The notes: generated from the sequence alone by a model not told the origin. 64,000 nt of DNA from Octopus vulgaris (GCA_951406725.2 OX597826.1:69254001-69318000), one strand, 5' to 3'; shown: positions 11,100 to 58,025, numbered from the stretch's first letter. Translations and numbers: made by a program.

Positions 11100-11275
11100 T
11101 TAATACAAACATGAAAACACAAAGAGAAAACACAACAACGCGAGGACGTGGAACAAATATAGTATTATTGGACGCTCAGGATGGAAGGGAAGAAGGAGGG
11201 CTTAACGTTTCGAGCGGAGCTCTTCGTCAGAAACATAGGAGAAGGAAAGATCCAGAGAAGGGAAGACAGAGGAAA
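11100..11275 (-). mobile_element. Small (TA)n-inserted element with hammerhead motif (pLTR/retrozyme-like)
   Basis: Flanked by TA tracts; homologous to 33565-33740 (opposite strand); contains the HHR fold at 11200-11234. Confidence 0.7.
11200..11234 (-). ncRNA. Minimal type-I hammerhead ribozyme (extra A after A9)
   Basis: Minus strand GUUU-CUGACGA-A-GAGC(UCC)GCUC-GAAA-CG-U-U^-AAGC; stem I 4 bp including one GU. Confidence 0.7.
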
Positions 11276-11396
11276 TATATATATATATATACCGGAGTAA
11301 GCACATAAATGTGAAACAAGCTGCAAAAAAGTGTACTCAAATACCAGAGGTAGAGTAAAGTGCTTTTTTTTAAAAGCAGCAGAAATATAACAAAAG

Positions 11397-11434
11397 CTGT
11401 TACTCAGAGTTTCACGTCCCTGTTCGTCGGACAA
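11397..11434 (-). ncRNA. Hammerhead-like motif, U4C variant, weak stem II
   Basis: Minus strand UUGU-CCGACGA-AC(AGGGAC)GU-GAAA-CUCUGAG-U-A^-ACAG, within a separate small element at ~11292-11438. Confidence 0.5.
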
Positions 11435-11439
11435 ACTGT

Positions 11440-11680
11440 GTGTATGTGTGTGTGTTTGTCTTGTCTTTATTTTGTCTTAATCTCTGTTTATCTCCAACCA
11501 GCACTTGACAACTGGTGTTGGTGTTTCCTTCTCCCTCACTTAGCGGTTCGGCAAAAGACATCGATAGTATAAGTAACACGATTTAAAAAATAAGTATGCA
11601 GACGATTCATTTGAATAAAGTTCTTCAAAGCTGTACCCCAGCATGGCCGCAGTCTAATGAATAAACCAAATAAAGATAAA
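11440..11680 (+). mobile_element. SINE family B, 3' half
   Basis: cttgacaactggtgttggtgt...ttagcggttcggcaaaagac...cagcatggccgcagtc matches the 3' part of 31573-32012. Confidence 0.8.
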
Positions 11681-11689
11681 AAAATACCT

Positions 11690-12005
11690 ACATACGTATA
11701 AATATATACATATATGAGCATATATATATATATATATATATGTATGTATATATATATACATACATATATATTATATCTATGTATGTATATATATATATAT
11801 AGGTATATATATGAATATGTGTATATATTTATATATATATATATATATATATATATATATATATATATATAAATATATATATATATATATATATATATAT
11901 ATATATATATATATATATATATATATATATATATATATATATATACATATACATATATATATATATATACATATATATATATATATACATACATATATAC
12001 ACACA
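11690..12005. repeat. (TA)n microsatellite
   Basis: Direct reading; many further (TA)n tracts occur across the window. Confidence 0.97.
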
Positions 12006-12575
12006 CTCATAAGCCCTCGCAGACAAACACAATATACATGAAAAGACTCTTTTAGCCTGACCACGTAGCGATGCAGTGCAATATGGTTGAATAAGTTTAT
12101 CGTATGAACAGGAGAAGCTTTTTAGAGAATCGATTTATCTATTTCCTAATACTTTTCACATCGTTTATGTTTTTGCATATACGCTAAACTCTACAGAATG
12201 CCGTACTATAGAATGAGATACACACGAAATGCCAAATGTAAAAGAAAAGCAAGAACAGAAATGAACATTAATACATATTCAAACTGAAAACAAACGAAGT
12301 CAGCACATACATAACACACGCATGAAAAAAAAAAGTGTTTATAGAAACAAAGAAACGTAGTGTTAAGAGAGCGTGTTGAAATTGCGTCGCACAGCGTTGA
12401 TTAGTTTAGAAATACGGAGAAAGGTCAATGTGGAACGTGAACATGCGGGGTTGTGAGATAGGAAATTAAGTACTGTAAGACAGGAGATGAATTGAGAACG
12501 TGGCTATATCTGTTATCACCAGAAAATTATATGTTTGAATGAATGAATGCATGTAAGTAAGTTCGTACATACATA

Positions 12576-13316
12576 TAGATAGATAGATAGATAGATAGAT
12601 AGATAGATAGATAGATAGATAGATAGATAGATAGATAGATAGATAACTATTTTTATTGACCACACAGGGTTAAACACAGAGGGGACAAATACAAATCTAG
12701 TGCTTTTCTTTTCGATAGATAGAGAAATATAATATATATATATATATATATATATATATATATACACGAATACAAACACGGACATACACTCACACACCCA
12801 TGGACAAAGTCACATGCATACAGACTTGCAGACACATTTATTTATACATTCATTTATCTATATCTATCTATTTATCTCTCTCTCTCTCTCTCTCTCCCTC
12901 TCTCTCTCTCACTATATATATATATATATATATATATACATACATGGTTGGGTATAGACTAAGACACAGCGAGATAGCTAGATAGATAGATAGATAAGAT
13001 AAGATAGATAGATAGATAGATAGATAGATAGATAGATAGATAGATAGATAGATAGATAGATAGATATATAAGATAAGATAAGATAGATAAATAGATAGAT
13101 AGATAAGATAGATAGATAGATAGATAGATAGATAGATAGATAGATAGATAGATAGATAGATAGATAGATAGATAGATAGATAGATAGATAGATAGATAGA
13201 TAGATAGATAGATAGATAGATAGATAGATAGATAGATAGATAGATAGATAGATAAACAGATAGGTAGATAGATAGATAGATAGATAGATAGATAGATAGA
13301 TAGATAGGTAGATAGA
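12576..13316 (+). repeat. (GATA)n tracts (12576-12645, 12979-13316) with intervening TA/CT tracts
   Basis: Direct reading. Confidence 0.95.
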
Positions 13317-54940: not shown

Positions 54941-55494
54941 GATGGGGTGTCAATCACATGGACCCCAGAGTTTAGGTGGTGCTTAATTTATCGACACCAA
55001 AATGATGAAGTAATCAACCTTGGAGAAATTTGAACTCAGAACGTAAAGGCAGACAAAATACCGCTAAGCATAATAACAATAGTTTCAAATTTTGACACAG
55101 GGCCAACAGCATTTGAAGTTGACTACATCGACCCAAGTATTTAATTGGTTATTGTTTTGTGGCAAGCTGTATCGACCTTTGCCTTTCCCTTGGATGACAT
55201 TGGTGGCGTGGAGAGGGGAGACCGGTATGCATGGGTAACTGCTGGTCTTCCATAAACAACCGAACTTGTTCCTGGGAGGGTAACTTTCTAGGTGCAATCC
55301 CATGGTCTGTGTCGTGACCGAAGTAGGGCTCAGAATTTTATCGACACCGAGTGTTTGAAAGACAAAGTCGACCTTAGCAGAATTTGAACTCAAAACGTAA
55401 AGACAGTTGAAATGCCCCTAAACTTTACAATACGGGGATATCATAAGAGGGACCTGTCTCTCATGTTTGTTAGCAGCGTCTGCCTCGTCGGTCT

Positions 55495-55542
55495 CTGTGA
55501 CTGAAGAGGAGATAACCACTCCGAAATGCTTGCATTCCATAG
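55495..55542 (+). ncRNA. Type-I hammerhead ribozyme (canonical core, solitary)
   Basis: CUGUGA-CUGAAGA-GGAG(AUAACCA)CUCC-GAAA-UGC(UU)GCA-U-U^-CCAUAG; stem I has an A-C mismatch next to the core and one GU. Confidence 0.7.
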
Positions 55543-55818
55543 TCTTGTTATATAGGCGCTATGTATTTACAACCGTTTGTCTACCGCAAGACATTTTCTC
55601 CATAACAAAATACAACGAATGGCTCCCTTACGAGTTCGAATAATCTTTAAGCATATTTGAGCGGGAAACAAGTTTGTATTTGCACGCATCACTGCTTAGC
55701 GCAGTCGCTCCGTATTACAATGGTAATCCCCACTGTAACCACCATCATCATCGTGCTCATCATCATCACTTAGATTATTTTTCGTAAGTCTTTGCTGTCG
55801 GTGTTGATGTAGCTACTG

Positions 55819-55910
55819 TCTTCTTCTTCTTCTTCTTCTTCTTCTTCTTCTTCTTCTTCTTCTTCTTCTTCTTCTTCTTCTTCTTCTTCTTCTTCTTCTT
55901 CTTCTTCTTC
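55819..55910 (+). repeat. (TTC)n microsatellite
   Basis: Direct reading. Confidence 0.97.
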
Positions 55911-56059
55911 CAATCAGGACTCACGCCATTAGCTACAAAGAATAAATCTTTAATTCGAGCCTACTCTAAGCTCCTAAGAATGCATGTGGAAACTTGAAGA
56001 TCCACCCACCACACACGATAGACTGGCGGTTGCACGGGCGCGAAAGCTACGTTGTTATC

Positions 56060-56354
56060 CTCATTCCGTAAACAGTGGCTTTCCGTAACAGAGCTGAACC
56101 ATCCTGGGGTACAGAGGATTCGCAATCTAGACTAGGGCCTGAAAGTTTACCACACCAAAGTCGGTTACACGATGGTTCTTCTGCTTTGTGGCAGAAGTAG
56201 GAAGAAAGAGTGAGAGAAAGTTGTGATGAAAGAGTACAGCGGGGTTCACCACCACTACCCCCACCGGAGCATCGTGGAGCTTAGGTGTTTTTGCTCAATA
56301 AACACTCACAATGCCCGGTCTTGGAATCGAAACCAATGGGCCATTGCGCCTCCA
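56060..56354 (-). mobile_element. SINE family A head (internally deleted) with a further different tail
   Basis: gggccattgcgcctcca head and gaaagagtgagagaaagttgtgatgaaagagtacagc body; sequence to the left differs from tails 1-3. Left boundary approximate. Confidence 0.65.
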
Positions 56355-57832
56355 TTGTAGCTGCTGTTGTAATAATACTAAGAACTTGTATTGTTGTTAT
56401 TGCTACTCTCGTTGTTGCTGTTGTAACGGGTACAGTGATTAGTATTTTAATTAAAATGGAAATAACACAAGAATTATTGTTGTTGTCATTATTATTGTCA
56501 TAAATGGTGTTGTTGTTGTTTAACCCCTGGCCAGTCATGATCAGCTGGCCCATATTCAACGACATTGCAACTATGACTCATTTCTTTGTTCCTGTTTTTT
56601 TAATTTTTTTTTTTACAAACAATATATTTAGGACTACTCTACGTAATATGTGCCTCCTGTTTAACACGAAACTTTGAGATCTTTAAAGGAGAGTTGGCTG
56701 CTATTTTGAACAGGTTCAATGACCGCGTAATTGCCCCGTCTGTTTTGTTATTGGAAGTGATGTTGTCGCTATTGTTGGCGTTGTGATGCTTTGATAATGG
56801 CCGTTGTTTTTGAACTTGATGATGATGATGATTATGATGATGATATTTGTGGTTTTGTTGCTGTCGCTGTGACTGTGTTTATTTTCGGAACATTTAACAG
56901 GTTTTGCAGGAAATGGCTGTCATATTTGTCGCTGACAAAGTGTAAACATAAATTCATAGATTGCTTCTAGATTATTATTTTACTGAAAGCAACAGCAAAA
57001 ATAATAACAGGAGTATCCACAGCAACAGCAGAGTACCTCTAAACAGTGGCTTGCTCTACTAGAAATAACAGCTAAATCTATCTCAAATTACATAGTAGTC
57101 TCAACAAAATAAGAGCGACTCATTATATGATGTGATATGGGGTACAAAGCGGTTCATCATAGTTCTTCACAATGAAAGCTGACCTGGGCTAAGCAGCCAG
57201 TATCAGAGTTACGGCAACATCAGTTGTAGAGCAATACACTTGACCTATTGGGGCAGGGAATAACAATTACTTCTTAATTAAATCTCATCCTTTAATCTTA
57301 AAAGATGGAAGTAAACATTTGGTAAAGCGGTCTTAGACTACCTTTGAAAAAAAGCCAGAATTAGTACAGTTGAGCTCCTTTGTTCGTAGGTTTGCTTGAG
57401 CAAGATCTTTCTATATATAAACAATGGCAATTATAATAAGGATAGCAAAATGAGCGGAGTAACATTAGATGCAACAATAGTGAATATCGGGACAATCATA
57501 AATGCAATGAGGCAACCGGGAAGCGATTACTTCTTTTGCTTATTTCACTGATTTGTCGGCGGCCATACTGGAGCACCACATTAAAGGGCTTTTTTTTAGT
57601 CGAAGAAATCGACCCCAGGACTTATTCTTTGTAAGCCTAGTACTTATTCTATCGGTCACTTTTGCCGAACGGATACGTTACGACGGACGTAAACACACCC
57701 CAATATCGGTTGTCAAGCGATGGTGGTTAGACAAATACAAACATAAAAACACACATAAGAATATGTACATGTATGTATGTACAGGCATACATACATATAT
57801 ATATATATATATATATATATATATATATATAT

Positions 57833-58025
57833 GTAGGTCCCGGTTGATTCGGGGTTAACCACAGTAAGTAAGGTACTCAATACATAGCAGAGTAAATTAA
57901 TTTATTATATAGAAGGAGTTCTCAGGACTAGTGTTCATTCAAGAGAAATCTTCAGGAAGCTTCCTGAAGATTTCTCTTGAATGAAACAGTACTAGTCCTG
58001 TAGAAGCTCCTTCTATATAATAAAT
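57833..58025. mobile_element. TA-inserted element ending in a ~125-bp palindrome centred on AG|CT (57959/57960)
   Basis: tttattatatagaaggag...ttcaggaagc / ttcctgaagatttctc...ctccttctatataataaa; the left arm has small deletions. Confidence 0.8.
57958..58008 (+). ncRNA. Type-I hammerhead ribozyme (U10.1-U11.1 mismatch)
   Basis: AGCUUC-CUGAAGA-UUUC(UCUU)GAAU-GAA-ACAG(UACUAGUC)CUGU-A^-GAAGCU: 6-bp stem I, 4-bp stem III, GUA triplet, predicted cleavage after 58002. Confidence 0.78.

Follow-up and report, generated by a model that had tools for sequence, protein, structure and literature searches.

A 64,000-nucleotide (nt) stretch of the Octopus vulgaris genome (GCA_951406725.2 OX597826.1:69254001-69318000; hereafter the window) is microsatellite-rich, with a GC content of 36.5%, and contains eleven hammerhead ribozyme motifs, at positions 11200, 11397, 15476, 15830, 16153, 22770, 23165, 34193, 45117, 55495, and 57958 (Table 1). 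The original prediction took these for type-I folds from about seven mostly unrelated families, nearly all carried by short elements bounded by (TA)n. Self-comparison places 15476, 15830, and 16153 in one tandem-plus-inverted insertion and 22770 and 23165 in another, leaving eight insertions that represent seven families: A (the 15476 group), B (the 22770 group), C (34193 and 45117), D (11200), E (11397), F (55495), and G (57958). The count of seven is upheld, although C and D are akin around the hammerhead (37 nt at 81%, E 7e-5). We consider it very probable that the motifs are type-I hammerheads residing in the end repeats of Penelope-like elements (PLEs; Neptune-type for family C, Hydra-type for G and likely E) and in 330-360 nt tandem retrozymes (families A, B, and F), likely put into (TA)n by a Penelope reverse transcriptase (RT) and GIY-YIG nuclease.

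A strict type-I descriptor (exact CUGANGA...GAAA...UH with stems I and II) recovered four of the eleven sites (11200, 15476, 15830, and 16153) and none in 60 dinucleotide shuffles. A relaxed descriptor, composed after inspection of the sites and allowing U4C, A6U, U3-A8, a U.U base to stem II, and a longer stem III, matched eight of the eleven with no other match in the window; shuffles gave a mean of 0.065-0.095 (maximum two in 400 shuffles) and the reversed window none. The motif frequency is thus not that of chance. The three remaining sites, 11397 (weak stem II), 34193 (broken stem I), and 55495 (mismatch adjoining the core), are damaged copies of families that include members with an intact fold. 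All predicted sites and coordinates proved correct. The type-I organization itself (core CUGANGA/GAAA/UH or a known variant, three stems, stem I open) is present at eight sites and, for the other three, only in relatives. A reading of the 57958 site as lacking stem I was rejected; its cut triplet is GUA and its stem III spans 4 bp. An Rfam scan of the window mostly matched microRNA models to TA repeats; among the matches listed (150 of 216), Hammerhead_1 appeared only at 15476 and 15830, at 32.2 bits against a gathering score of 34.

The genome searched comprises 2.8 Gb in 227 contigs, about 30 of them large; searches returned 657-2,622 first-look candidates per family, 40 of which were scored in each search. 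Long copies of family C lead into an open reading frame (ORF) with YIDD, a CX4CxxC linker, and GIY-YIG, and at locus L196 two C hammerheads (3123 and 7627, 4.5 kb apart) bracket an ORF encoding RT, CX4CxxC, and GIY-YIG, with a tail behind the upstream copy. The protein motifs CSRPRCRTC, NIIY..LYIGQT, and ADKG correspond to a Neptune-type CX2-5CxxC linker and DKG. Judged by these motifs, family C is the pseudo-long terminal repeat (pLTR) of a full-length Neptune-type PLE; the linker is common to Nematis, and C may thus be of Neptune or Nematis type.

For family G, seven of the 16 fetched stretches in which the tail runs into non-TA sequence contain RT and nuclease, and at L421, L425, and L427 hammerheads 4.3-6.1 kb apart bracket the ORF. 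Its protein has RWR (for RWK), DKT, YRDD, CxCX5C, and CxxC-E-N-CxH, and no CCHH. The Hydra clade signature consists of DKT, an RWK-like motif, a CxCX5C linker, and CxxC/CxH around E and N (PMC8557442; here and below, cited sources are drawn on in part), and by this signature family G is the pLTR of a full-length Hydra-type PLE. The layout expected of a PLE, a single RT and GIY-YIG ORF between two hammerhead pLTRs, is thus seen at L196 for C and at L421, L425, and L427 for G; the parent copies read bear frame breaks in both families. At six of 20 loci, a Hydra-type nuclease precedes family E in matching orientation (the query locus is among the six, and three that share a contig may be duplicates), while in three further loci E is otherwise placed; the nuclease end of its partner ORF reads CxLC-E-N-CRH, and a link of E to a Hydra-type PLE is likely. 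The assignment of the window's motifs to PLE pLTRs and non-LTR retrozymes in the original prediction is borne out by the full-length parents of C and G and the tandem units of A, B, and F; the description of nearly all sites as lying in short elements needs qualification, as C and G are ends of protein-coding PLEs of 4.3-6.1 kb.

Candidate partners for other families were rejected. At L348, two separate D copies flank an unrelated Neptune-type fragment; two longer D copies reach only about 50 nt further. The PLE ORFs beside families A and B at L016 and L043 lie on the other strand and are not shared; among same-strand A or B pairs, none was seen to combine PLE spacing with an ORF, one pair, 6.6 kb apart, having been checked. 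Separately, the G parent at L316 has a branch-point-like CTAAT and a putative AG acceptor upstream of 3094, right before stem I, as in both G subfamilies; a similar arrangement is reported for the intron of Drosophila virilis Penelope.

The ends of the insertions were compared across families. After removal of overlaps, 30 loci gave 19 family A insertions, each with TA on one or both sides (both in 15); nine include an inverted part; in 18 of the 19, the 3' end falls at one fixed base or after a tail 44-47 nt further. The 3' end is flush on TA in 27/28 copies of B, 25/29 of C, 21/29 of D (22/30 in an unbiased set), 16/24 of E, and 23/24 of G, against 1.6% of random positions, so that the predicted (TA)n targeting holds for these families and not for F. 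Within the window, TA adjoins the 3' end of seven of the eight insertions and both ends of five. Optional tails measure about 45-70 nt across families (70 nt in G), and 11 of 28 B copies end in one. A fixed 3' end, an optional tail, an inverted 5' copy, and TA occur together in A, B, and G; C, D, and E have the fixed TA end, with inversions also in E, and F lacks this pattern. Tails, inverted 5' copies, and TA targets are hallmarks of PLEs (PMC8557442). In C and G, the element sequence past the end opens with AT-alternating bases matching the target. No element end falls on a predicted cleavage site, in agreement with the uncleaved-RNA template of PMC11167929, where the tail marks two internal RT start sites and cleavage is not required.

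Canonical ribozyme cores are present in A, part of D, F, and G; the core of B is U3-A8, a variant described for PLE hammerheads (PMC4209133). The U3-A8 of B and the differing paired stems of 23 hammerhead clusters may point to pairing retained across families, but the descriptor itself requires pairing; upper stem I, which lies outside the descriptor, pairs above shuffles only in A (p 0.02) and E (0.005), and not in B, C, D, F, or G. Two-copy cofolding of A or B predicts a two-core dimer via the palindromic stem III, 4.7 (A) and 6.1 (B) kcal/mol better than two monomers. The same prediction did not yield a hammerhead dimer as the best fold for C, D, E, or F. The three stems of G are predicted to fold as a monomer.

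These features could be accounted for by a single insertion pathway. The nuclease would nick (TA)n on one or both strands, and RT would begin internally at one of two fixed sites downstream of an uncleaved hammerhead, producing either the short end or the tail end, with a few AT bases of RNA at the start site matching the target. Where priming occurs in the pLTR at the mRNA 5' end, RT would run off at the cap after 150-250 nt and leave a solo pLTR (D, C, E, G), and two such cDNAs placed head to head would give a G foldback. To this point, hammerhead cleavage is probably unnecessary. Tandem transcripts of A and B, in turn, would be cleaved by the hammerhead, probably as dimers via the palindromic stem III, into monomers and likely circles, which RT would copy more than once.

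Several observations weigh against this explanation. The RT scores of the C ORF fall below the Pfam gathering cut-off, and the Pfam scan of that ORF returned no GIY-YIG family match; the clade names Neptune and Hydra are assigned by motif. Among the fetched loci, A, B, D, and F have no autonomous partner with which they share sequence, and because of this the link of these families to PLE enzymes rests on the anatomy of their ends. Family F has no TA flank in any of 23 relatives or in the window, and at least one tRNA-like short interspersed element (SINE) copy in the window begins beside TA runs, so that TA adjacency may not be exclusive. Several cores depart from the canonical sequence: A6U is present in all 30 C copies, and U4C in nearly all E copies (24 of 25) and more than half of the D copies (18 of 30); at these frequencies A6U in C and U4C in E are family traits, and such cores may not cleave. 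In a related Xenopus study, eight of nine predicted retrozyme dimers failed to cleave in vitro and one cleaved. Among the A and B units, ten variants are common to all units of an insertion, 89 occur in a single unit, and three in some units, a weak test of rolling-circle copying. Lastly, we infer the cleavage, transcript ends, and circles of the model from sequence.

The 5' ends of short copies are also non-random. In family D, 25 of 41 copies begin 75-84 nt before the core, at TCATTCAAAATG, a sequence similar to an initiator, and one extends further. In family G, 29 of 38 arms begin between -10 and +16, and for 11 of these the start is the opening base of stem I, the A of AGCTTCC (there are two arms per foldback, which are not independent), and five of the 38 run more than 100 nt past this wall. 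Among the first 100 G matches listed, 26 opposed pairs lie less than 300 nt apart, 21 of them at a spacing of 79-99, where 90 represents a perfect AGCT join. The arms mostly agree within a copy (in six of eight distinct short foldbacks; 30 loci, stretch compared by eye) and junctions differ between copies; each foldback therefore appears to have been made anew. Spread of the foldbacks as a unit with one fixed dead arm was rejected as an effect of query bias, as an unbiased pattern scan found the intact base in 91 of the 100 matches listed. The opposite-strand arm of the foldback in the window has small deletions.

In six of eight direct non-parent G junctions, AGCTTCC or GCTTCC is preceded by a G at a position that is T or C in the parent, and several foldbacks have the extra G on both arms, though some single cases could be one-base hairpin errors. 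Copying of the cap by RT gives an extra G, as is known from work on long interspersed elements (LINEs). Together with the stem I wall, the extra G suggests that RT ran off the capped 5' end of an mRNA beginning at the ribozyme. Transcription of Penelope starts within the upstream pLTR (PMC2377424). At L429, G mini-tandems with differing joints suggest template jumps. Furthermore, an array of about 30 units of 271 nt, derived from the G pLTR, tail, and ORF start, occupies G000:C8:91.475-91.483 Mb as a single stretch that includes an inversion. It ends with a tail on TA on one side and the short end on TA on the other, and nine of 24 direct intervals are identical. The array resembles a retrozyme recently born from a known PLE parent, and DNA-level expansion may have followed.

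On balance, we somewhat favor a joint reading of these G observations, in which the cap lies at the first base of stem I and the thousands of G mini-elements would be copies of the mRNA leader. The capped RNA start would be the A of AGCTTCC in G and ATTCAAAATG in D. Two G cDNAs primed from the short-end and tail-end sites would run off at the cap and join by the self-complementary AGCT into foldbacks of about 190 nt, jumps of RT from the cap back to RNA 3' ends would produce the mini-tandems, and the 271-nt array would be a newborn retrozyme. If this is correct, the G hammerhead, some 45 nt into the mRNA, would serve as a decapping switch, a genome with some 10^5 hammerheads would be among the densest reported, and the G-derived array would directly support an origin of retrozymes from PLE ends. 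It is unlikely that the short copies instead stop at the hammerhead through RT stalling at folded RNA or ordinary random truncation, a change that would leave the rest of the model as it is. Stalling would suit the clustering of G and E 5' ends (both Hydra-type) at the 5' edge of stem I and the five arms reaching beyond it, and a stable fold and the AGCT palindrome could alone favor joining there; yet the D wall, at an initiator-like TCATTC, stands about 80 nt upstream of the hammerhead, and the G found at six of the eight direct junctions is what cap copying would give.

The tandem families have the composition of non-LTR retrozymes (150-450 bp non-coding tandem units, GC below 50%, one type-I hammerhead per unit). 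Family A has a 353-nt unit in arrays of up to six direct units, 98-99% identical across contigs; B has a 363-nt unit and a tail of about 60 nt; F hammerheads are spaced 331-347 nt apart in four loci. The GC content, given for A and B, is 0.42 and 0.41, respectively. Contigs from four sequencing runs presumed to be of RNA cover the A unit without showing joints or ends, and so speak neither for nor against its expression. Alternatively, A, B, and F might be satellite-like tandems in which unequal crossing-over drives local expansion, with a LINE or DNA-level mechanisms responsible for dispersal and the hammerhead as a passenger. Local amplification of retrozyme tandems has been proposed (bioRxiv 10.64898/2026.07.22.740005), and both the lack of a sequence tie to a PLE ORF and the TA-free flanks of F would accord with it. 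We regard this as quite improbable. The A and B arrays occur on many contigs at 98-99% identity; their 3' ends fall either on a single base or on a single tail terminus, whereas their 5' ends vary and 5' parts may be inverted, as is typical of PLEs (PMC8557442). Neither poly(A) nor a tRNA head was seen in the units. A further retrozyme, with seven units of 359 nt, was noticed at L222 2090-4770 (G000:C1:20.002-20.005 Mb); it is akin to A only around the hammerhead, and it has an inversion and TA ends.

All seven families of the window are genome-wide repeats. Exact patterns for D and G matched 13,342 and 8,485 times, respectively, and those for A, an A relative, and B 1,888 times in total, with none for each reversed control. 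In a sample of 60 tiles of 10 kb (600 kb) on a fixed grid, to which the relaxed descriptor had not been fitted, 27 folds were found in 14 tiles (about 17 insertions, with seven folds in one array), as compared with 0.9 in shuffles. This suggests a density of about 45 folds per Mb and roughly 1.2 x 10^5 folds genome-wide, a rough figure because the folds are clustered; the window is about 2.8 times denser than the sample. In the fetched loci, a sample biased to the family queries, 425 descriptor hits fall into 23 hammerhead clusters, 12 of them in at least two loci. A large, family-rich ribozyme mobilome is supported; the elements adjoin simple repeats but are themselves ordinary interspersed repeats with thousands of copies. 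The probability that the folds are random matches in an AT-rich, repeat-dense genome is negligible: although the relaxed descriptor was fitted to the window sites, three of eleven sites miss even that descriptor, and Rfam scores lie under threshold, this origin is already refuted by the strict count (four against none in shuffles), the relaxed count in the window (eight against a mean of 0.065-0.095), and the independent tiles (27 against 0.9), while the U3-A8 covariation in B matches a published PLE variant and two full-length PLEs carry the fold at the expected place. Additional hammerhead families absent from the window, several with U3-A8, were noticed in the grid sample and flanks (L241, L243, L250, L251, L275, L277, and L336).

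Table 1. Hammerhead-bearing elements of the window (positions counted from its first nucleotide)
Feature	Position	Strand	Remarks
Family D element, 5'-truncated, TA both sides	11098..11274	-	Neptune-type family C kin
Family D minimal hammerhead	11200-11234	-	Canonical core, 4+4 bp, palindromic ACGU stem III
Family E element, 3' end on TA	11291..11434	-	Elsewhere downstream of Hydra-type endonuclease ORF
Family E hammerhead variant	11397-11434	-	U4C core; stem II weakened in this copy
Family A insertion, putative 353-nt tandem retrozyme, TA both sides	15265..16361	.	Two inverted units and one direct
Family A inverted units	15265-15923	.	Start with 44-47 nt tail
Family A direct unit	15924-16361	.	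Same insertion as inverted pair
Family A hammerhead copy 1	15476..15520	-	Canonical core
Family A hammerhead copy 2	15830..15874	-	Strict descriptor; Rfam score below gathering score
Family A hammerhead copy 3	16153..16197	+	8-nt palindromic stem III, extended stem I; predicted cut 16191/16192
Family B insertion, putative 363-nt tandem retrozyme, TA both sides	22540..23375	.	5' part inverted, with tail
Family B hammerhead, inverted copy	22770..22811	-	Compensatory U3-A8 core
Family B hammerhead	23165..23206	+	U3-A8 core; predicted cut 23200/23201
Family C, older 5'-truncated putative Neptune-type PLE end, 3' end on TA	34096..34356	-	Hammerhead 34193-34231, stem I broken
Family C, young solo pLTR of putative Neptune-type PLE, TA both sides	45050..45252	+	Minimal hammerhead 45117-45154, family-wide A6U core
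Family F, old ~330-347 nt tandem-type retrozyme relic (putative), no TA flanks	55430..55712	+	72-76% to relatives
Family F damaged hammerhead	55495-55545	+	Mismatch adjoining core
Family G foldback, TA both sides, tail at left end	57833..58024	.	Two head-to-head putative Hydra-type PLE pLTR copies joined at AGCT 57958-57961
Family G hammerhead	57958..58008	+	Canonical core, 6-bp stem I, U.U-based stem II, 4-bp stem III; predicted cut 58002/58003

Other repeats were noticed alongside these elements. A dispersed family with a 184-bp unit, in tandems of up to seven, occupies 19793-21078, 61679-62163, 49479-49716, 5510-6054, and 18025-18637 of the window; neither descriptor finds a hammerhead in it, and it is probably a SINE 3' domain. 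Copies of a young (92-96%) 390-bp family, whose tRNA-like head lies on the opposite strand, are found at 7106-7485, 35446-35834, 42083-42477, and 62608-62993; this family is likely a SINE. SINE-like copies with a tRNA-like head and an internal TA/TG microsatellite, one of which begins beside a TA run, are found at 25694-26108, 31568-32018, 48983-49363, and 60634-61306. An exact 1,096 bp tandem duplication (100% over 1,098) at 27292-29485 is either very recent or an assembly artefact, and at 39410-40350 a unit of about 470 bp occurs twice in tandem (80% identity), with no hammerhead found. Outside the window, a tandem unit of about 310 bp between TA runs (L043 2060-2660) has PLE-like anatomy and no descriptor hammerhead, making it a candidate for another ribozyme or a hammerhead-less partner; a repeat family with GAAAC ahead of CUGAnGA (L196 2330-2380, L348 4326-4370) is a candidate for a permuted (type II/III-like) hammerhead order.

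The ribozyme class, the TA targeting, and the link between PLEs and retrozymes are already published for other animals (PMC4209133; PMC7229834; PMC8557442; bioRxiv 10.64898/2026.07.22.740005). The octopus elements represent new families of known kinds in a new host, and may already stand unnamed in Repbase, Dfam, or the Zenodo library of PMC13282606. Annotated PLEs already account for 6.83% of the O. vulgaris genome and fall into 190 families (PMC13282606 supplement); the text portions and supplement examined of that study do not mention ribozymes, and we found neither an octopus or cephalopod hammerhead survey nor a report of a Penelope 5' wall in the open-access literature. Because this one genome houses young, near-identical families and their autonomous parents, the course of Penelope transposition (start sites, the 5' end of the RNA, inversions, and the formation of tandems) can be read from thousands of junctions. 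Published work leaves the role of the hammerhead in PLEs open (PMC8557442; PMC11167929), and a canonical hammerhead that is predicted to fold as a monomer, and that probably lies at the 5' end of a Hydra-type mRNA, allows a direct test of that role. PLE derivatives of 150-360 nt could also be misannotated as SINEs or miniature inverted-repeat transposable elements.

The hammerheads described for PLE pLTRs (PMC4209133) resemble those of the octopus in their type-I fold, short stem I, extra base after A9 (C and D), palindromic minimal stem III, and U3-A8 variant, as well as in the many families per genome, mostly as single truncated copies, and in close opposed pairs. The estimated density here, about 45 per Mb, exceeds the counts of that study (about 9,000 in Xenopus tropicalis), although the descriptors differ; in the portions consulted, it names no octopus and describes no fixed 5' walls of short copies. 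Neptune and Hydra PLEs with an endonuclease (PMC8557442) share the CX2-5CxxC linker and GIY-YIG of C, the DKT, CxCX5C, and CxxC/CxH around E and N of G, and the tails, inverted 5' copies, (TA)n targets, and pLTR hammerheads. However, Hydra-clade elements are generally below 3 kb and few lie outside cnidarians, whereas the putative G parents measure 4.3-6.1 kb and have a long 3' untranslated region, a 70-nt tail, and 8,485 exact motif copies. The Poseidon PLE of Anolis (PMC11167929) likewise has two internal RT start sites downstream of the hammerhead that define a tail, an AT-rich target, and an uncleaved template; in Poseidon, hammerhead and ORF start overlap and RT initiation involves no target homology, whereas in G about 190 nt separate the hammerhead from the ORF downstream and a few AT bases agree with the target. 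For metazoan retrozymes, unit lengths of 350-390 bp have been described from a mussel, with motif counts that exceed 6,000 (16 families) in a coral and reach 120,000 in axolotl, and circles are reported (PMC7229834); the origin of retrozymes from PLEs has been argued in a preprint whose consulted portions sample no mollusc (bioRxiv 10.64898/2026.07.22.740005). Families A, B, and F resemble the retrozymes of both sources in being non-coding units of 330-363 nt with one type-I hammerhead, arranged as dimers to multimers, with a GC content of about 41-42% in A and B. Circles and expression are shown only in those papers; in the octopus, by contrast, a PLE signature can be read from the insertion ends, and one array appears traceable to a named parent.

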